Shown one piece after another: positions 2,230-21,190 of a stretch of DNA of 64,000 bases. Origin of the DNA: Bacilli bacterium (lineage in GTDB: Bacteria > Bacillota_I > Bacilli_A > RF39 > UBA660); the NCBI GenBank assembly GCA_017544165.1, contig JAFYER010000012.1, positions 131,538 through 195,537 of the forward strand, read 5' to 3'. The notes below the pieces were generated by a model that was given only the letters and a program-made list of their open reading frames with translations, was not told the DNA's origin and did no database searches. How positions within the stretch are numbered: the first letter of the stretch is position 1; each line of letters starts with the position of its first letter. The translations under genes and the position numbers were made by a program.

Positions 2230-2313
2230 TGGTGCAGGTAAAGGGACTCGAACCCCCACGGATGATCCATTAGATCCTAAGTCTAACGCGTCTACCAATT
2301 CCGCCATACCTGC
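2230..2313 (-). tRNA. tRNA-Leu (anticodon UAG)
   Basis: Reverse complement reads GCAGGTATGGCGGAATTGGTAGACGCGTTAGACTTAGGATCTAATGGATCATCCGTGGGGGTTCGAGTCCCTTTACCTGCACCA. It has a cloverleaf with a long variable arm, anticodon loop CTTAGGA, and an encoded CCA end. Confidence 0.85.
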
Positions 2314-2322
2314 ATATTATAG

Positions 2323-2399
2323 TGGTGGGCCTCATAGGACTCGAACCTATGACCATTCGGTTATGAGCCGAGTGCTCTAACCAACTGAGCTAGAGGCCC
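2323..2399 (-). tRNA. tRNA with CAU anticodon, most likely tRNA-Ile2 (lysidine) rather than elongator Met
   Basis: Reverse complement reads GGGCCTCTAGCTCAGTTGGTTAGAGCACTCGGCTCATAACCGAATGGTCATAGGTTCGAGTCCTATGAGGCCCACCA. The anticodon stem-loop CGGCTCATAACCG matches B. subtilis tRNA-Ile2(CAU). Confidence 0.8.
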
Positions 2400-11900: not shown

Positions 11901-12434
11901 ATGGCAAAGCAAGATAATAAATATTTTCCTTATAAGAATCACTTATACATGATTATTGGTATAGTTGTTATACTTTTAATCGGATGGTATATCGCTTCTT
12001 GGTTAAACATTAAAAATGAGGAAAAATTATCTGCAAGTTATTTAGTTAAAACTAATACAATTACTTATAGTATTGATGATTTAAAAGAAATAAGTAGTAT
12101 TTTTCAAGAATCACCTAGCGAGTATTTTGTATATATAAGTTATACCGGTGAAGAATCAGTTTATAAATTAGAAAAAAGATTAAAAAAAGTAATTGATGAT
12201 TATAATTTAAAAGATGAGTTTTATTATTTAGATATAACATCACTTAAAGATGATGAAAACACTTTAAATAAATTAAACAAAGAATTTGATACTGACAAGA
12301 TAATTAATTATCCTTGTATACTATATTTCAAAGATGGACAAATCAAAGATATAATAGTTGATAAAAATAATGTATTTGATTATAATAAGTTTGTTAATCT
12401 TTTAAAAGATAATACATATGAGAAAGCCATTTAA
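11901..12434 (+). CDS. membrane-anchored thioredoxin-fold-like protein lacking CxxC
   Basis: N-terminal TM helix and RBS AAGGATGGTGA. The domain YFVYISYTGEES...YYLDITS...NYPCILYFKDGQIKDII resembles a Trx fold without redox cysteines. Confidence 0.45.
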   Translation: MAKQDNKYFPYKNHLYMIIGIVVILLIGWYIASWLNIKNEEKLSASYLVKTNTITYSIDDLKEISSIFQESPSEYFVYISYTGEESVYKLEKRLKKVIDDYNLKDEFYYLDITSLKDDENTLNKLNKEFDTDKIINYPCILYFKDGQIKDIIVDKNNVFDYNKFVNLLKDNTYEKAI

Positions 12435-14277: not shown

Positions 14278-14886
14278 TTACATCTCCATATATTCTTTTA
14301 AAACTTCATTCAATACTTCTTTTTGAAGTCCTATTTGATATTCACTCCAATATTTTTCAGCATTCATATTACCACTTATAAATGCATTTGAATCATCGAA
14401 ATGAATTACAATGCCATTTTTCTTAACATAAAGCGTTGGCCCATAAATATTAACTGTTCCATCATCTAAATGAGTAACATAATCGCTTAAATATTCAGCA
14501 ATACTTTGATATGTACCATTTTTCTTTTCACGATCATCTGTAATATCATAATAATATATTTCCTCGACATTATTATTCTTAGCTACCTCATTTAAAATAT
14601 TGGCATAATAACCAACATAGTCATTATTTTTTATGCCAAATAAAATAATAACATTATCTTGTTTAATATATGTTAAAGCCTCTTGATTATTAATATATGT
14701 ATAAACATTTTCTTTATCTATTATCGCTTTATGCTCATTAGCAAATTTCTCATTATCGTTAATATCTTTTTTTGAAAAATCAATTGTACTCACATAAATA
14801 AATCCCATTATAAATAAAATAAAAAGGATTAAAGATATAATCATTTGTTTTTGACTTTTAAAAATCCAAACTGGCTTATTATTCAT
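14278..14886 (-). CDS. membrane-anchored thioredoxin-fold-like protein lacking CxxC (paralogue-like of 11901..12434)
   Basis: 202 aa with an N-terminal TM helix. The segments VIILFGIKNNDY...YYYDIT...GPTLYVKKNGIVIHF have Trx-like topology without redox Cys. Confidence 0.45.
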   Translation of the reverse strand: MNNKPVWIFKSQKQMIISLILFILFIMGFIYVSTIDFSKKDINDNEKFANEHKAIIDKENVYTYINNQEALTYIKQDNVIILFGIKNNDYVGYYANILNEVAKNNNVEEIYYYDITDDREKKNGTYQSIAEYLSDYVTHLDDGTVNIYGPTLYVKKNGIVIHFDDSNAFISGNMNAEKYWSEYQIGLQKEVLNEVLKEYMEM

Positions 14887-14981: not shown

Positions 14982-15878
14982 TTAGTAATCTTCTAAAAAA
15001 TTAATAGCTTTAGTGGCCGCTATAGCTCCATCACTTGTGGCAGTTGTAAGTTGACGAAGTGTTTTTACTCGGCAGTCTCCTGCAACGAAAATCCCTTCTT
15101 CATTAGTTAAACAATCTTCACTTTGAATGTAGTTATCTTCACTAAGCGTCAACTTATCTTTTACAAGTTCAGTTTGAGCATCTAAACCAATTGATAAGAA
15201 TAATCCTTCGATTTCTAAAGATTTATCTTCTCCATCCATTTGATAGTTAATTCCTGTAAGATGTTCATTACCAATTAATTTAGTAACAACACTTTTGTAA
15301 AGAATTTCAATATTATCAGTCTCTTCGATTTTCTTAATTAAAGTACTATCGCTACGCATTTTATCTTTGCGAACAATCAAATATACTTTATTACATATTT
15401 TTGATAAATAAATGGCATTAACAGCGGCACTATTGCCACCACCTACGACAGCGACATCTTTATTCTTAAAAAAGGCTCCATCACAAGATGTACAAAATGA
15501 GATACCATTGCCGATAAGATTTGTTTCATTTTCAAGGCCTAGTAAACGATATTTAGCTCCGGTTGCTATTATTAAGACTTTACCTTCATAACTAGTATAA
15601 TCAGTTGTAACTTTTTTAACTTTACCAGTAGTAATTTTTAAAACCTCTTCGTATTCGATTTGAACGCCTAAATCTTCAGCTTGTTTTTCAAAAATACTAG
15701 CAAGCTCTACGCCTGATATTTCGGGAGCACCTGGATAATTTTCAACAAGTGGCGAAGATGCAATTTGGCCACCAATAGCATTTTTTTCTAAAACTAAGGT
15801 CTTTAAGCCGGCTCTTACACAGTAGATGCCTGCAGTAATACCTGCAGGCCCTCCACCGATAATTATTACATCATACAT
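14982..15878 (-). CDS. trxB: thioredoxin-disulfide reductase-like flavoprotein
   Basis: FAD site IIGGGPAG, redox-active CTSCDG (compare CATCDG in TrxB), NADPH site GGGNSA with a VRKDKMR (HRRD-like) motif, and C-terminal GIFVAGDC. Confidence 0.8.
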   Translation of the reverse strand: MYDVIIIGGGPAGITAGIYCVRAGLKTLVLEKNAIGGQIASSPLVENYPGAPEISGVELASIFEKQAEDLGVQIEYEEVLKITTGKVKKVTTDYTSYEGKVLIIATGAKYRLLGLENETNLIGNGISFCTSCDGAFFKNKDVAVVGGGNSAAVNAIYLSKICNKVYLIVRKDKMRSDSTLIKKIEETDNIEILYKSVVTKLIGNEHLTGINYQMDGEDKSLEIEGLFLSIGLDAQTELVKDKLTLSEDNYIQSEDCLTNEEGIFVAGDCRVKTLRQLTTATSDGAIAATKAINFLEDY

Positions 15879-15881
15879 ATT

Positions 15882-18278
15882 TTATTTTTTATCCTCGATG
15901 TATTTTTTGATATTAGAAAGGTTAGCAATAAGTGTAGCTTCACCTTTTTTTACCTCGACAAGTGTAGGAGCTTGACTCACACCTAAATATTTAGTAAGTT
16001 CAACTTCTTCTTCAGCGTCAATAAATTTATATTTAATTTTAGCCTTATCTAGTAACTTTTTTGCAGTTGAGCAATTTGGACAAGTTTTGGTTCCAAATAG
16101 ATAAATGCCGTTTTTAACTTTTTCTTTTTTATCTTGGCAACCACATTCACAAGTTTCATCGCAGTTGCAATTATCTTCGCAACCACATTCACAGTCTTTT
16201 GAGCATTTTGAATGTTCAATATCATATGTCTTACGCATTTTAAATTCTTTAGCCTTACCATCATTCCAGTTTTTAACAGGACGATAATATCCTGTAATAC
16301 GGCTGTATACTTCTGTTTCATCGCCACAAGTTGGGCAAGTATATACTTCGCCAGAAATATAACCATGTTTACGACATACAGAATATGTTGGACTCATTGT
16401 ATAATATGGAAGTTTATAATTTTCAGCAATCTTTCTAACTAAATTAGCAGCAGCTTTCCAGTCAGATAATCTTTCACCCATGAAGGCATGAAATACTGTT
16501 CCTGAAGTATAAAGTGTTTGAAGTTCATCTTGAATATCAAGAGCTGTAAAGATGTCTTCCGTATAACCTACTGGTAAATGAGAACTATTTGTATAATATG
16601 GAGTTTCATCATCAGAAGCCGTAATAATATCAGGGTACATTTCTTTATCTTTCTTGGCAAAACGATAAGTTGTTGATTCAGCTGGGGTCGCCTCAAGGTT
16701 ATATAAATCACCATATTCTTCTTGATAATCAGATAATTTATCTCTCATGAAGTTAAGTACTTCTTTAGTAAACTTAACTGCTTTTTCATTTGTTAAATCT
16801 TCGCCTACCCATTTAGCGTTTAAGCATGCTTCATTCATACCTACTAAACCGATTGTTGAAAAATGGTTAGCAAATGTTCCTAAATATCTTTTAGTATATG
16901 GATATAGTCCTTCATCTAATAGTTTAGTAATAACATTTCTCTTAATTTTTAAACTTCTTGCTGCTAAATTCATTAAGTTTTCTAATCTTTCATAGAATTC
17001 TTGTTCATTAGCGGAAAGATAAGCTATTCTCGGCATATTAATTGTAACTACACCAACAGAACCTGTTGATTCACCACTTCCGAAGAAACCTCCACTTTTC
17101 TTACGTAGTTCGCGAAGATCTAGACGAAGGCGACAGCACATACTTCTTACATCAGATGGCTCCATATCACTATTAATATAATTTGAGAAATATGGAGTTC
17201 CGTATTTAGCAGTCATTTCAAATAATAATTTATTATTTTCGGTTTCAGACCAATCAAAATTCTTAGTAATTGAATATGTTGGAATTGGGTATTGGAAACC
17301 ACGTCCATTAGCATCGCCTTCGATCATAAGTTCAATGAATGCCTTATTGACCATATCCATTTCTTTTTGACAGTCTTTATATTTAAAATCTACTTCCTTG
17401 CCCCCAATAATACAATTTAATTCTGCAAGGTCATTAGGTACTGTCCAATCAAGGGTAATATTAGTAAATGGTGCTTGAGTTCCCCATCTTGATGGAGTAT
17501 TAACGCCATATACAAATGATTGAATAGATTGCTTAACTTCTTTATATGATAAATTATCAATCTTAACAAATGGAGCTAAATATGTATCAAATGATGAAAA
17601 TGCTTGAGCACCAGCCCATTCATTTTGCATAATACCTAAGAAGTTTACCATTTGATTACATAATGTTGTTAAGTGTTTCGCAGGACTACTAGTAATCTTG
17701 CCGGGAACACCTCCAAGGCCTTCCTTAATAAGTTGTTTTAAACTCCAACCAGCACAATATCCTGTAAGCATTGATAAGTCATGAATATGAAAATCACAAT
17801 TACGATGAGCTTTAGCTATTTCTTCATCATATACTTCAGTAAGCCAGTAGTTAGCAGTAATTGCTCCGGAGTTACTTAAAATAAGACCACCAACAGAATA
17901 TGTTACAGTTGAGTTTTCTTTAACCCGCCAGTCGGTTACATTAATATAGCTGTTAACAACTTGTTTATAGTCAAGGATTGTTGATGACATAGCTCTTTGT
18001 TTTTCATGCAATTTACGATACAAAATATACGCCTTAGCAACATTTGTGTACCCAGCTTCCGATAAAACTACTTCTACACTATCTTGAATTGTTTCAACAT
18101 CAACAATATTATTTTTTACTTTATCAGCAAAATCTGCGGTAACTTTTAAAGCTAAGAAATCTAACACATTTTCATCGTAATTAACTTTTTCAGCCTCAAA
18201 AGCCTTCTCTATAGCCTCCTTTATCTTAATAATTTCAAATGGAACAATCTTTCCATCTCTCTTTCTAACTTTATACAT
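15882..18278 (-). CDS. nrdD: anaerobic ribonucleoside-triphosphate reductase (class III) with C-terminal Cys-rich segment and fused glutaredoxin/NrdH-like domain
   Basis: ATP-cone N-terminus; NrdD core with HDLSMLTGYC and MCCRLRLD; Zn-ribbon CPTC; and the glycyl-radical motif SRITGYY. This is followed by KCSKDCECGCEDNCNCDETCECGCQD and a CPNC redoxin domain, IYLFGTKTCPNCSTAKKLL... Confidence 0.9.
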   Translation of the reverse strand: MYKVRKRDGKIVPFEIIKIKEAIEKAFEAEKVNYDENVLDFLALKVTADFADKVKNNIVDVETIQDSVEVVLSEAGYTNVAKAYILYRKLHEKQRAMSSTILDYKQVVNSYINVTDWRVKENSTVTYSVGGLILSNSGAITANYWLTEVYDEEIAKAHRNCDFHIHDLSMLTGYCAGWSLKQLIKEGLGGVPGKITSSPAKHLTTLCNQMVNFLGIMQNEWAGAQAFSSFDTYLAPFVKIDNLSYKEVKQSIQSFVYGVNTPSRWGTQAPFTNITLDWTVPNDLAELNCIIGGKEVDFKYKDCQKEMDMVNKAFIELMIEGDANGRGFQYPIPTYSITKNFDWSETENNKLLFEMTAKYGTPYFSNYINSDMEPSDVRSMCCRLRLDLRELRKKSGGFFGSGESTGSVGVVTINMPRIAYLSANEQEFYERLENLMNLAARSLKIKRNVITKLLDEGLYPYTKRYLGTFANHFSTIGLVGMNEACLNAKWVGEDLTNEKAVKFTKEVLNFMRDKLSDYQEEYGDLYNLEATPAESTTYRFAKKDKEMYPDIITASDDETPYYTNSSHLPVGYTEDIFTALDIQDELQTLYTSGTVFHAFMGERLSDWKAAANLVRKIAENYKLPYYTMSPTYSVCRKHGYISGEVYTCPTCGDETEVYSRITGYYRPVKNWNDGKAKEFKMRKTYDIEHSKCSKDCECGCEDNCNCDETCECGCQDKKEKVKNGIYLFGTKTCPNCSTAKKLLDKAKIKYKFIDAEEEVELTKYLGVSQAPTLVEVKKGEATLIANLSNIKKYIEDKK

Positions 18279-18299: not shown

Positions 18300-18986
18300 C
18301 TATAAGTTCCGAACAATTACGTTTGGAAACTTTTCTCCCACTATTTTTTGTATATTGATTAGTTCTTCTTTACTAAATGATTCTAAAGTTTTATCTACAA
18401 CATACTCGCTTTGCTCAAAGTTTTGTAAAAAATACTTTTCACTATCCCCCAGATATTTGCATATTTCTAATATTTTATCTATATCATGAATATTTTTTAT
18501 GATTGTCGTCCTAAATTCATGATTAATAGATGCTTTTTTAAGCAATTTAATACTTTCCTTAATATTATCTATCTTAACTTTCGTCTTGATAACACTTTCA
18601 TAATCCTCAAAGGTTGTTTTAATATCCATTGCTATATAATCAATTAGGTTTTCTTCGATTAATTCCTTTAACATATTATAATTTGCACCATTAGTATCAA
18701 GTTTAACAAGATAACCTAATTCTTTAATTTTTGTAATAAAATCTTTTAGATCTTTTTGAATAGTTGGCTCCCCGCCAGTAATTACTACACCATCTAAAAC
18801 TGTTTTTCTTTTACTTAAGTAATTTAGTATTTCATCCTCAGTAATTTCTTCATTACCTTTCAAAGGAATAAGCTCTGAATTCTGACAAAAACTACATTTA
18901 AAATTACATCCTTGCGTAAATATAATACATGCTGTTTTTGATGGATAATCCAAAAGCGTTAATTTTTGAAGTCCTGCTATTTTCAT
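18300..18986 (-). CDS. nrdG: anaerobic ribonucleotide reductase activating protein (radical SAM)
   Basis: CNFKCSFCQN, a CxxxCxxC radical-SAM cluster motif, plus a GGEP SAM site. It lies between the two nrdD-type genes. Confidence 0.85.
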   Translation of the reverse strand: MKIAGLQKLTLLDYPSKTACIIFTQGCNFKCSFCQNSELIPLKGNEEITEDEILNYLSKRKTVLDGVVITGGEPTIQKDLKDFITKIKELGYLVKLDTNGANYNMLKELIEENLIDYIAMDIKTTFEDYESVIKTKVKIDNIKESIKLLKKASINHEFRTTIIKNIHDIDKILEICKYLGDSEKYFLQNFEQSEYVVDKTLESFSKEELINIQKIVGEKFPNVIVRNL

Positions 18987-20938
18987 TTTGTACCAACCTT
19001 CATCTTAGCAAAACCAATATCAACATCAATTAGTGATTTTATTAAATCTACTACTTGCTTATTATTAGCTTTCTTAGGAATATCTATAGTCAGTAAACAT
19101 CCACCTTTGAAATAAGATTGAACTTTACTTAATTTTTCCTTATTATCAATAAATTTACTGCTTTCAATTAGATCATAGACATTTTTATCAGTAATATTTT
19201 TGCTTACTCCATATATTGATTTATCAATACCGATAAGATACCTTCTTGATTGCAAATCACTTGGTTCAAAAACATTAAAGTTTATTTTTGCCTCTTCACT
19301 AAAATCAGTACATTTTTTATTAAAATAATCAAGTATTTTAATCATGAAGTCATATTGTTTTGTTTCATCTTTTTCTAATGCTATAACGCATTCTTTTAAG
19401 CCTATAAGGCCAATACTTAGATTGCCTGTTTTAATAATTTTCCGTATTTTTTGGCCGCTTTCAAGTCTCTCATCGCCAAGGATATTGCCATTAAATAGTG
19501 ATGCATAGTTTTCTTTACTTTTATTACCAATTGTTTCAAATGATAATAGTAATTCACTTTTAACTAAATCAAGTTGACTATCAAGCTCTTTATAAAACTC
19601 TTTTAAGTCTTTATTGATATATTTTAAGCCAATTCTTGCAAGGTTAATCGAGGTGCTTGCTACGACCATCCTGCCAGTTGCTTTATTTTCAGTATCATTA
19701 ATGTTTTCAAAAATACGCATGCCATTACTAAAGTATTCTGCTTCATAAGTATCATGGTTATATGAATTATCGACAAATGATAAAGAAATATTTTTTTGAT
19801 TAATGATTAGACTCGCAATTTTTGTTAAATAATGTTCATCACCATCAGACTTAACTTTAAACACAACATGAATATTATTTAAGTAGTTATTATCAGTTAA
19901 AAATGATATTAAGCTGCATCTTATAGTATTACATGCCTTTGATTCATCATTTCCTACGCTAATTGTATATGTGCAGCTTTCTTTAACATTTGTTTTTAAC
20001 ATTCCAAATACTCGACCAATAATATCGTTAATTAAGCCACTCATTTGCTTATCAACATCTTTTATAAGGGTTTTAAAAACATTTTCAATAACCGGATTAG
20101 TAATAAATTGTTTAAAGACATCGATTGAAATGTTTATATCCTCTATTTTATAAATAACTTCTTGAATCTTTTTATATGGAACAAATTCCAAAAGCCCACA
20201 CAAACGCAAATATTTTTTTAAATACTTATCAAGTTGTTTTTGATAGCAAGATATAATAAACTTTTTCAAAATAGAATCTAAAGAATTAATACCTATTTCG
20301 TTACTTACTTCACTTTGTGCATTAATAATATTACTGATAAATTCATCTAAGTATTCATCGTTTTCATCAATAGCAAGTTTAAGATTAACATGTGACAAAT
20401 ATCCTAAAGAAAAAGAGTTTAAATCGTGAATAAAAATATTGCCTTCTTCGAGAGCTCTTACATATTTACTATCTAAAACATATGCTTTAGCATATTCCGA
20501 AGAAATAATCTTACCAAATTTATTTAAAAGTTCTTTCGGAGTTAAACTTGAATCTTTACTATTGCTTTCTCCTTCAACTCTTTCAACTACCTTGACAAAT
20601 TTGTGTTGTTGTTTTTCATTAAAAACTTTTCTCGAAGCAGCTCTTTTTTGACGATAATCTTGAAAAGTTAAAAAAACTCTTTCAAACCCAGCATCCTTTA
20701 AAGTACTTTCTATGATGTCTTGAATATCTTCAACATTAATAGTTTTTCGGTCTTTATAATTAGTATTAATATACTTTAATACTTTTTCAAAAACACTATA
20801 AACTTGTTTCTCATCAGCTTCACCATATACGGCGTCAAACGCCTTTTTAACGGCTATTGCGATTTTGGAAGCGTTGAAATCAACTCTTTGTCCGCTGCGT
20901 TTAACTACAACTAGATTCTCTAATACTTCGTTCCACAT
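18983..20938 (-). CDS. NrdD-like paralogue with ATP-cone but lacking the C-terminal glycyl-radical/Zn-ribbon domain
   Basis: ATP-cone VVKRSGQRVDFNASKIAIAVKKAF; GNIFIHDLNSFSLGY aligns with HIHDLSMLTGYC of NrdD; RMVVASTSINLARIG aligns with VGVVTINMPRIA. The protein ends ...FAKMKVGTK with no RxxGY motif and no CxxC ribbon. Confidence 0.7.
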   Translation of the reverse strand: MWNEVLENLVVVKRSGQRVDFNASKIAIAVKKAFDAVYGEADEKQVYSVFEKVLKYINTNYKDRKTINVEDIQDIIESTLKDAGFERVFLTFQDYRQKRAASRKVFNEKQQHKFVKVVERVEGESNSKDSSLTPKELLNKFGKIISSEYAKAYVLDSKYVRALEEGNIFIHDLNSFSLGYLSHVNLKLAIDENDEYLDEFISNIINAQSEVSNEIGINSLDSILKKFIISCYQKQLDKYLKKYLRLCGLLEFVPYKKIQEVIYKIEDINISIDVFKQFITNPVIENVFKTLIKDVDKQMSGLINDIIGRVFGMLKTNVKESCTYTISVGNDESKACNTIRCSLISFLTDNNYLNNIHVVFKVKSDGDEHYLTKIASLIINQKNISLSFVDNSYNHDTYEAEYFSNGMRIFENINDTENKATGRMVVASTSINLARIGLKYINKDLKEFYKELDSQLDLVKSELLLSFETIGNKSKENYASLFNGNILGDERLESGQKIRKIIKTGNLSIGLIGLKECVIALEKDETKQYDFMIKILDYFNKKCTDFSEEAKINFNVFEPSDLQSRRYLIGIDKSIYGVSKNITDKNVYDLIESSKFIDNKEKLSKVQSYFKGGCLLTIDIPKKANNKQVVDLIKSLIDVDIGFAKMKVGTK

Positions 20939-20967: not shown

Positions 20968-20983
20968 ATGATAATCTTATCAT
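20968..20983. promoter_or_regulatory. 16-bp palindrome ATGATAATCTTATCAT (Fur/PerR-box-like) in the 5' leader of the nrdD-like/nrdG/nrdD operon
   Basis: 7-2-7 inverted repeat ATGATAA-TC-TTATCAT, 30-45 nt upstream of the start codon at 20938. It resembles the TGATAAT-N-ATTATCA Fur-family consensus. Confidence 0.25.
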
Positions 20984-21150
20984 TTTAAAGATTACTTATC
21001 AATGTTTTTTTAATTAATTTTTTATTTTTTACACTTTTTTGTAAATTTTAAAAAAATAATTTTTTATATAAAAAAACATTTAGCTGTTCTAAGCCAAATA
21101 TTCATTTTTTTATTTTTTCGTTCATTGACAATTAATAGACATTAGTAACT

Positions 21151-21181
21151 AAATAAATAAAAAACCATTCCAATTGGAATG
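21151..21181 (-). terminator. rho-independent terminator downstream of tsf
   Basis: Palindrome CATTCCAATTGGAATG (21166..21181), followed on the minus strand by GTTTTTTATTTATTT. Confidence 0.5.
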
Positions 21182-21190
21182 ATTTAATTA

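Follow-up and report, generated by a model that had tools for sequence, protein, structure and literature searches.

Class III ribonucleotide reductases (RNRs) which depend on a redoxin have been described, and so have RNR polypeptides fused to a redoxin. What is new in the case presented here is a redoxin fused to the C-terminus of NrdD, the catalytic subunit of a class III RNR. The fusion gene, nrdD::redoxin (also written nrdD::grx), lies on a 64,000-nucleotide stretch of DNA from a Bacilli bacterium (RF39; UBA660), positions 131,538 to 195,537 of contig JAFYER010000012.1 in GenBank assembly GCA_017544165.1; this whole stretch is called the window. From its sequence we read the fusion module as a self-contained redoxin-coupled class III RNR which would receive its electrons through a thiol relay rather than from formate, and we give this reading roughly two chances in three.

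The class III enzymes have been divided into two lineages (Burnim et al., 2022, PMC9669993). Enzymes with the finger loop MGCR use formate through a Met-Cys thiosulfuranyl radical, whereas enzymes with the loop xCCR can form an active-site disulfide which is reduced by thioredoxin, with a Glu as the proton source. The thioredoxin-dependent type, NrdD2, is known from Neisseria bacilliformis and Thermotoga maritima (Wei et al., 2014, as cited in PMC9669993, PMC4493059 and PMC9176816). According to the account of that work in PMC9669993 the N. bacilliformis NrdD is reduced by thioredoxin, and the thioredoxin is recycled by thioredoxin reductase (TrxR). The NrdD of the window resembles NrdD2 in being a glycyl-radical enzyme with a Cys on strand beta-A, a double-Cys xCCR loop and an active-site Glu, and a thioredoxin-fold electron source recycled by a TrxR would be expected. 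It differs in that the redoxin, a separate protein in NrdD2, is covalently attached at the C-terminus, and in that the operon includes the reductase gene. The loop is SCCR in T. maritima and MCCR here, keeping the formate-associated Met; moreover, the fused NrdD is distant from the T. maritima enzyme (140 bits) and also has an ATP-cone.

Another class III enzyme, NrdD3 of Methanosarcina barkeri, works with an NrdH-like redoxin and a ferredoxin disulfide reductase (Wei et al., 2015, as cited in PMC9176816). The likeness to the present case is that a small glutaredoxin (Grx)-like, NrdH-type redoxin encoded together with its own reductase serves a class III RNR. In NrdD3, however, the redoxin is separate and the reductase ferredoxin-dependent, where we find a fused redoxin and a flavoprotein of the TrxR type, and the NrdD3 loop is QCCR/A without Met or Glu (PMC9669993), where we find MCCR plus Glu.

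Fusions of glutaredoxins to RNRs are known as well. Facklamia ignava has a Grx::ATP-cone::NrdB protein, the Grx of which was shown to act as an RNR reductant (Rozman Grinberg et al., 2018, PMC6187632). The same paper surveyed RNR-Grx combinations in RefSeq and gives a single case for NrdD, a Glutaredoxin:NrdD of subclass NrdDd in Lachnospiraceae bacterium TWA4. What the F. ignava protein shares with ours is a thioredoxin-fold redoxin joined to an RNR polypeptide. The fusions in that paper are written with Grx first, whereas the redoxin here is C-terminal; the F. ignava Grx is glutathione-dependent and sits on the radical subunit of a class I enzyme, whereas ours sits on a class III catalytic subunit, has a CPNC site without the glutathione-site motifs of classical Grx and is paired with a TrxR-like gene. 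In contrast to the one NrdD case in RefSeq, the form described here is widespread.

The class I and class II RNRs have a conserved and essential C-terminal Cys pair or cysteine-rich domain (CRD) (PMC5704485). The fused NrdD resembles them in having a Cys-bearing extension at the C-terminus of the catalytic subunit, on what would be the electron path from the redoxin to the active site, but in the fused NrdD the spacer cysteines lack conservation and the extension includes an entire redoxin domain. Class III RNRs have been described as having no C-terminal redox cysteines (Lundin et al., 2015), and Burnim et al., who analysed the C-termini of class II and the finger loops of class III enzymes, include no class III C-terminal redoxin. 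An earlier note on this DNA, made from the sequence alone, did not recognise the architecture as one already described. This stands in so far as our search of open-access full text found neither a description nor a biochemical study of a C-terminal NrdD-redoxin fusion; rare it is not, as the databases contain it widely.

Domain structure and occurrence of the fusion

Direct reading of the window sequence gives one open reading frame (ORF) without internal stop, in which the ATP-cone, NRDD and Glutaredoxin profiles each score above their own Pfam cut-off (Table 1). The NRDD match spans the whole profile (positions 1-562 of 562; cut-off 26.2 bits). Residues 1-687 correspond to the NCBIfam equivalog NF006126, 'ribonucleoside triphosphate reductase', with 1145.9 bits against a cut-off of 548, and the NrdD part scores 544 bits against TIGR02487 (cut-off 326). 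It aligns with the NrdD structures of T. maritima (4COI/4U3E) and P. copri (8P23). The CPTC motif, residues 648-651, forms part of a putative zinc site which aligns with the C..H..CPVC segment of the T. maritima enzyme; in the alignment of relatives its three cysteines (C635, C648 and C651) never vary and H638 has a conservation of 90% or more. The glycyl-radical motif RITGYY is invariant across two alignments of relatives. Pfam matches and reading of the sequence thus bear out the ATP-cone, the CPTC motif and the glycyl-radical motif named in the earlier note. Domain scores, motifs and a cognate NrdG mark the protein as the catalytic subunit of a class III RNR, with a predicted anaerobic ribonucleoside triphosphate (NTP) reductase activity.

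Three further, independent metagenome contigs encode a protein identical to this one. The best 120 full-length relatives listed all carry a Glutaredoxin or Thioredoxin Pfam match together with the ATP-cone and NRDD; they are 776-812 residues long and 82-99% identical, apart from one misassembled entry of 950 residues (P0122), which was rejected as a longer variant and is an assembly duplication. When only the last 132 residues were used as query, 170 proteins were returned, mostly C-terminal NrdD fragments from metagenome-assembled genomes (MAGs) of Clostridia/Firmicutes, and most of them span both the end of NRDD and the redoxin. A further scan covered one genome per species with an alignment of the tail as query, and the figures given for species loci refer to its best 80 loci. 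All 80 have NrdD and redoxin in a single frame. They belong to Bacilli/'Tenericutes'-type MAGs, Erysipelotrichaceae, Lachnospiraceae, Oscillospiraceae, Acutalibacteraceae and Christensenellales, with one MAG labelled Lentisphaerae among them. The C-terminal fusions which the earlier note proposed to search for are found in isolates as well, Extibacter muris DSM 28560 (type-strain draft) and Lachnospiraceae bacterium CE91-St61 (complete genome, AP025573), and on about 28 IMG/VR contigs.

Several of the IMG/VR fusions have no ATP-cone and some have linkers of 3 residues. The IMG/VR loci L092, L094 and L106/L107 have interruptions of about 0.5-1.1 kb inside nrdD, which may be introns or inteins. 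Some of the IMG/VR contigs are up to 318 kb long and may be host DNA.

NCBI annotates the fusion proteins as 'ribonucleoside triphosphate reductase' only. The C-terminal NrdD-redoxin fusion is abundant in databases and common in gut Firmicutes, and has apparently never been studied.

The NrdD active site

In the earlier note the NrdD was called canonical, that is, a formate-using enzyme with an addition. The active site does not agree with this. The residues by which NrdD2-type enzymes are recognised in PMC9669993, namely the beta-A Cys, the pair of cysteines in an xCCR finger loop and the active-site Glu, are all present: inspection for a thiol pair, as proposed in the same note, found C175, the loop SMCCR and E529, together with the formate-associated Met. 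At the position of Glu529 the formate-type P. copri enzyme has a Leu. Every species locus that includes the relevant part of the gene has GYCAGW and SMCCR unchanged, and the Glu motif YNLEATPAE, assessed in the same way, shows rare single-residue variants only. Judged by these residues the fused NrdD is not of the formate-only type; it carries the residues associated with thioredoxin-dependent reduction and, in addition, the Met associated with formate.

The redoxin domain

Residues 726-773 match Pfam Glutaredoxin (PF00462) with 31.4 bits, above the gathering score of 22.9. An AlphaFold2 model of the last 198 residues, made from 83 aligned sequences, predicts a beta-alpha-beta-alpha-beta-beta-alpha fold with a predicted local distance difference test score (pLDDT) of 95-98 in the redoxin. 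The best PDB matches of this model in Foldseek are desulfothioredoxin (2L6C), short thioredoxins, glutaredoxins and NrdH of C. glutamicum (4FIW, 30% identity), and a sequence search of PDB agrees with this picture. All 198 relatives have CPNC at the active site; in alignments reaching down to about 40% identity T-C-P-N-C and the A-P of the cis-Pro loop are invariant and the T-L that follows is at least 90% conserved. This conservation of CPNC and of the cis-Pro region suggests that the fusion is under selection. The claim that a class III RNR and a C-terminal thioredoxin-fold CPNC redoxin form a single polypeptide is thus upheld by Pfam, by the model and by the relatives. With CPNC, the cis-Pro and this predicted fold the domain has the features of the small Glutaredoxin/NrdH-type redoxins, in which a CxxC opens helix 1 and a cis-Pro precedes beta-3.

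It is less simple to say which redoxin it is. With the last about 100 residues the NCBIfam profiles for YruB-type Grx-like proteins, NrdH, mycoredoxin and Grx3 give 20-25 bits each at cut-offs of about 85-90, showing no preference. NrdH proteins have the signature motifs CVQC and WSGFRP. The domain here has CPNC at the active site and no WSGFRP-like motif, and its score against the NrdH-redoxin profile TIGR02194 is 21.7-24 bits, the cut-off being 85.75. On these scores and motifs it is no member of NrdH, although its size and its probable TrxR partner recall NrdH. A classical glutathione-dependent glutaredoxin has a CPYC-type site and the glutathione-binding motifs TVP and GGxDD; in the fused domain the site is CPNC, APT replaces TVP and no GGxDD follows beta-4, and the GRX_bact and GRX_euk profiles give 18-23 bits against cut-offs of 87-90. 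By sequence and predicted structure the domain is a thioredoxin-fold redoxin of Grx/NrdH size, and we provisionally treat it as a small family of its own. A HMMER search of 1.84 billion cluster representatives gave 559 matches to this family at E<=0.001. The active-site CxxC could be located in 137 of the top representatives and is CPNC in 134 of these. Most matches are recognisable NrdD tails or fragments which start within the tail or the spacer; among the 147 matches new to this search, 12 look stand-alone.

The operon and the TrxB-like partner

The fusion gene is the third of four genes on the minus strand and is preceded by nrdG, 21 nt upstream; nrdG is directly upstream in 41 of 52 loci. 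The trxB-like gene follows, and its Shine-Dalgarno sequence, GAGGA, lies within the last codons of the redoxin. Among the 74 of the best 80 species loci which have at least 1.1 kb of downstream sequence, 61 have a trxB homologue on the same strand within 400 nt downstream; one further locus (L065), in which the two overlap, brings the number to 62. Between the aligned nrdD::grx and trxB segments there are mostly 3-90 nt, with a median gap of about 35 nt. Consensus scans, which are weak evidence, show a hairpin resembling a terminator at 21185..21162, after tsf, and a promoter-like site at 21002..20974; between the four operon genes, on their strand, they show no terminator-like element. An Rfam scan of the window matched two tRNAs only, with no riboswitch near the operon.

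The TrxB-like protein matches Pyr_redox_2 in Pfam with 151 bits and has the FAD motif GGGPAG. Its best PDB matches are all TrxRs, 4ZN0 being the top one with 262.7 bits. A ferredoxin-dependent reductase of the FFTR type was considered as the partner and rejected for this window and for E. muris: the proteins from these two score 219-263 bits with canonical TrxRs and 107-114 bits with FFTR (6GNA/6GNC), the window protein reaching 106.8 bits with 6GNA.

A proposed relay for the fused enzyme

The model starts from what is observed, namely the fusion, the fold, the conserved motifs, the active-site residues and the gene order. It proposes that NrdG puts a glycyl radical on Gly663 and that the radical would move from there to one of the finger-loop cysteines, C381 or C382, to start reduction of the NTP. 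Two reducing equivalents would be supplied by the beta-A C175 together with the other finger-loop cysteine, and Glu529 would serve as acid/base for the proton. This would leave a disulfide between C175 and C381/382 in the active site, as in the thioredoxin-dependent N. bacilliformis enzyme, which would be re-reduced by the CPNC dithiol of the redoxin, which hangs on a flexible spacer at the end of the glycyl-radical domain. Re-reduction of the oxidised CPNC would finally fall to the TrxB-like flavoprotein, with NAD(P)H. That electrons pass along each of these steps, and that the redoxin is used in preference to formate, we infer from the fusion and the operon by 'Rosetta-stone' logic, and from the analogy with the published N. 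bacilliformis, M. barkeri and F. ignava systems. An intramolecular thiol relay had already been suggested in the earlier note. It is plausible and now better supported, since it fits both the active-site residues and the TrxB-like gene found almost always directly downstream; the part given in that suggestion to a metallothionein-like linker, like the supposed rarity of the architecture, is not supported.

A number of observations weigh against the model. The finger-loop Met380 is present and invariant, whereas its absence is the marker for enzymes using thioredoxin only (PMC9669993). In E. coli NrdD a finger-loop Met supports formate-dependent chemistry (PMC9669993), and by the logic of that paper an enzyme with both sets of residues could use either reductant; the Met retained in SMCCR may therefore permit formate use. 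The largest ORFs of the 64-kb window include neither PFL nor any formate gene, and the window is too small to settle formate metabolism. It should also be noted that all fused NrdDs found form one tight clade with cores 69-90% identical, so that the co-occurrence of the fusion with the Cys pair and the Glu counts as one evolutionary observation and not as many. A further difficulty is that a folded redoxin would have to come to a disulfide buried in the barrel. A full-length AlphaFold2 model, based on a shallow alignment of sequences 84-91% identical, has a mean pLDDT of 57 with the barrel largely below 50, which is too poor for any claim that the redoxin docks near the active site.

The partner raises points of its own against the model. 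The TrxB-like protein scores 320.9 bits against TIGR01292, just under the cut-off of 343.45, and its NADPH motif HRRxxxR is altered to VRKDKMR. At this motif E. muris has the canonical HRRDAFR and some genomes HRRDxFR, while many Clostridial partners have QNLDF(F/L), without basic residues; this variation suggests that the electron donor may differ between lineages. Finally, an adjacent trxB is missing in 12 of the 74 species loci and in all IMG/VR loci. The IMG/VR fusions without trxB fit a mobile enzyme which brings its own adaptor and uses the reductase of the host.

Alternative explanations

The fused redoxin might instead be a maintenance or activation factor which keeps the cysteines of the zinc site and the glycyl-radical domain reduced for NrdG, formate being the reductant of the enzyme. 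Such a role of thioredoxin has been reported for the formate-dependent E. coli NrdD (Lundin et al., 2015). The position of the redoxin, directly after the zinc site and glycyl-radical domain and in some IMG/VR versions only 3 residues away, would suit it well, as would the Met retained in the finger loop. The second finger-loop Cys and Glu529 are, however, both unneeded for formate chemistry, and the presence in 62 of 74 loci of a reductase gene which is dedicated to the enzyme and translationally coupled points to a stoichiometric flux of electrons more than to occasional repair. We consider this explanation unlikely, at perhaps one chance in several.

Another explanation puts the cysteine-rich spacer in the centre. 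The earlier note described it as a metallothionein-like element containing a stretch of 26 residues with 10 Cys; a direct count gives 9. The spacer is hypervariable. Its length is 8-55 residues among 198 relatives and 3 in some IMG/VR versions, and its cysteines number from 0 to 10. Taken over the 198 relatives, Cys makes up 10.6% of the linker residues against 1.56% in the NrdD core, a roughly 7-fold enrichment and well beyond chance. Of 155 distinct linkers, 102 have two or more Cys, for the most part arranged as CxC or CC some 10 residues ahead of the redoxin, and 39 are free of Cys. The linker cysteines show no positional conservation among relatives, and the pLDDT of the linker in the AlphaFold2 model is 52-63. 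Pfam and NCBIfam scans of residues 686-723 gave no match, neither to a metallothionein-like family nor to a metal-binding domain. The paired 23-nt copies (Table 1) indicate that a CECGC unit has been duplicated and that the linker of this window has been enlarged by a 42-nt duplication.

Other expansions of the linker, with up to 10 Cys, are seen in related genomes, and the segment seems prone to length changes of the slippage type.

According to this second explanation the spacer would be the key element, either a metal module (Zn or Fe-S, metallothionein-like) or a shuttle dithiol like those of class I/II, and would be required for the passage of electrons from redoxin to active site. The family-wide enrichment and the many linkers with two or more cysteines speak for it, as does the similar use which class I and II RNRs make of C-terminal Cys pairs or a Cys-rich Zn domain. 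There is also a weak association between Cys-bearing linkers and an adjacent trxB: linkers with at least two Cys are found in 38 of 62 cases beside trxB and in 3 of 11 without it (Fisher p=0.05, phylogenetically uncontrolled). This association was set aside as evidence, being weak and without control for phylogeny. A required element should hardly be free of Cys in a quarter of the linkers (39 of 155) or shrink to 3 residues, and the stretch in the window is a recent 42-nt duplication in a segment with low model confidence, no family match and no conserved positions. We therefore find this explanation improbable, more so than a maintenance role. The enrichment in cysteine is real and recurrent, while the element is neither conserved nor indispensable; the spacer cysteines may be an optional extra, giving additional exchangeable thiols or metal binding which is not required.

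A bolder version of the relay would make the spacer and the tethered CPNC equivalent, in class III, to the redox tail at the C-terminus of class I/II enzymes. They would act as a swinging arm which enters the barrel as the glycyl-radical domain moves out, with the CxC/CC pairs exchanging with the active site. This we regard as speculative and rather unlikely.

That the fusion is an artefact of assembly or sequencing, joining nrdD to a separate downstream nrdH-like gene, is effectively refuted: metagenome assemblies do contain such errors, as in P0122 and in a 1-nt deletion in the neighbouring paralog of one locus (L001), but no support for one at the fusion was found, and the same in-frame fusion occurs in hundreds of independent assemblies of varied sources, including the three contigs with the identical protein and the best 120 relatives listed, in the complete isolate genome AP025573 and in the E. 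muris type-strain draft.

The NrdD paralog

The first gene of the operon encodes a paralog of NrdD which appears to be catalytically dead. It matches the Pfam ATP-cone and positions 4-503 of 562 of the NRDD profile, that is, most of the barrel, and it has neither the beta-A Cys, the finger-loop Cys pair and the Glu nor the zinc site and glycyl-radical domain. In 61 members of the family the catalytic positions are replaced in a consistent manner (C175 by I/M/L, C381 by G, C382 by I/L/M, E529 by F/Y), and 198 of the 651 positions are at least 95% conserved. The family comprises at least 120 clusters, 52-100% identical, whose members are named 'hypothetical protein' or misnamed formate RNR. In Bacilli-type MAGs the paralog always heads the cassette paralog-nrdG-nrdD::grx-trxB, which is found in differing chromosomal neighbourhoods. 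The open-access literature searched contains no description of it. We take it for a probable pseudoenzyme or regulatory subunit; one possibility is that it serves as a dedicated allosteric partner of the fused enzyme through its ATP-cone.

In the near-identical assembly L001 a 1-nt deletion (AAAA to AAA) at about 4217, corresponding to about 20063 in the window, splits the paralog into two called genes. The deletion may reflect decay in one strain or a mistake in assembly; the representative of the cluster, which has 13 member sequences, is intact.

Other features of the window

Near the redox module are a gene for a DUF6568 (PedC-like) protein and, directly after trxB, a gene for a 202-residue protein without significant family match. 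The rest of the window contains housekeeping genes, gyrA/B, infB, one for a PBP, ftsA, tgt, rpsB, tsf and frr, which fits a cell-walled Bacilli-type gut bacterium.

Table 1. Positions in the window of the genes, domains, motifs and repeats discussed in the text.
Feature	Position	Strand	Basis or remark
nrdD::redoxin fusion gene	15882..18278	minus	798 aa + stop; single continuous ORF
ATP-cone, residues 3-92	18003..18272	minus	PF03477, 74.4 bits
NrdD catalytic barrel and glycyl-radical domain, residues 121-685	16224..17918	minus	PF13597, 649.5 bits
beta-A cysteine Cys175 (GYCAGW)	17754..17756	minus	aligns with T. maritima Cys125
Finger loop S379-M-C-C-R383, double-cysteine type with Met	17130..17144	minus	aligns with T. 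maritima SCCR 328-331
Active-site Glu529 (YNLEATPAE)	16692..16694	minus	aligns with T. maritima E495 in FNIEQVPAE
Putative zinc site C635-x2-H638-x9-C648-x2-C651	16326..16376	minus	sequence reading; metal binding predicted
Glycyl-radical motif R660-I-T-G663-Y-Y665	16284..16301	minus	sequence reading; putative radical site
Variable linker, residues 686-723	16110..16223	minus	between NRDD end and redoxin domain
Cys-rich stretch KCSKDCECGCEDNCNCDETCECGCQD, residues 691-716 (K691-D716)	16131..16208	minus	9 Cys, direct count
Two 23-nt direct-repeat copies, 42 nt apart	16129-16151 and 16171-16193	minus	96% identical; repeat search
Grx/NrdH-like thioredoxin-fold redoxin domain, residues 724-798	15885..16109	minus	PF00462 and AlphaFold2 model
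Redoxin CPNC, C733-P-N-C736	16071..16082	minus	sequence reading, in IYLFGTKTC733PNC736
Redoxin cis-Pro P771	15966..15968	minus	A-P-T-L, cis-Pro loop of thioredoxin fold
trxB-like flavoprotein disulfide reductase gene, 298 aa	14982..15878	minus	starts 3 nt past nrdD::grx stop
TrxB-like redox motif C129-T-S-C132	15483..15494	minus	sequence reading
Pyridine-nucleotide motif region, TrxB residues 164-174	15356..15388	minus	VRKDKMR here
nrdG activase (radical SAM)	18300..18986	minus	TIGR02495 NrdG2, 230.4 bits, cut-off 131.15
NrdD paralog gene, 651 aa, with ATP-cone	18983..20938	minus	first operon gene; stop overlaps nrdG start
202-aa protein gene	14278..14886	minus	directly after trxB
DUF6568 (PedC-like) protein gene	11901..12434	plus	near redox module
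Two adjacent tRNA genes	2233..2399	minus	sole Rfam matches in window

Implications

The annotation 'ribonucleoside triphosphate reductase' hides an architecture which is widespread. It occurs in very common gut Firmicutes, culturable strains included, and on contigs classed as viral. The fusion bears on two open questions: how class III RNRs choose their reductant, and how a protein reductant gains access to an active site plugged by the glycyl-radical domain. Neither has been settled by the T. maritima structures or by the MCCR clade which could use either reductant (PMC9669993 for the latter). A natural fusion, usually with the reductase gene next door, offers a ready-made and stoichiometrically defined system for both. 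If the swinging-arm version of the relay were true, it would overturn what has been published on class III RNRs, namely that they lack external redox cysteines at the C-terminus.

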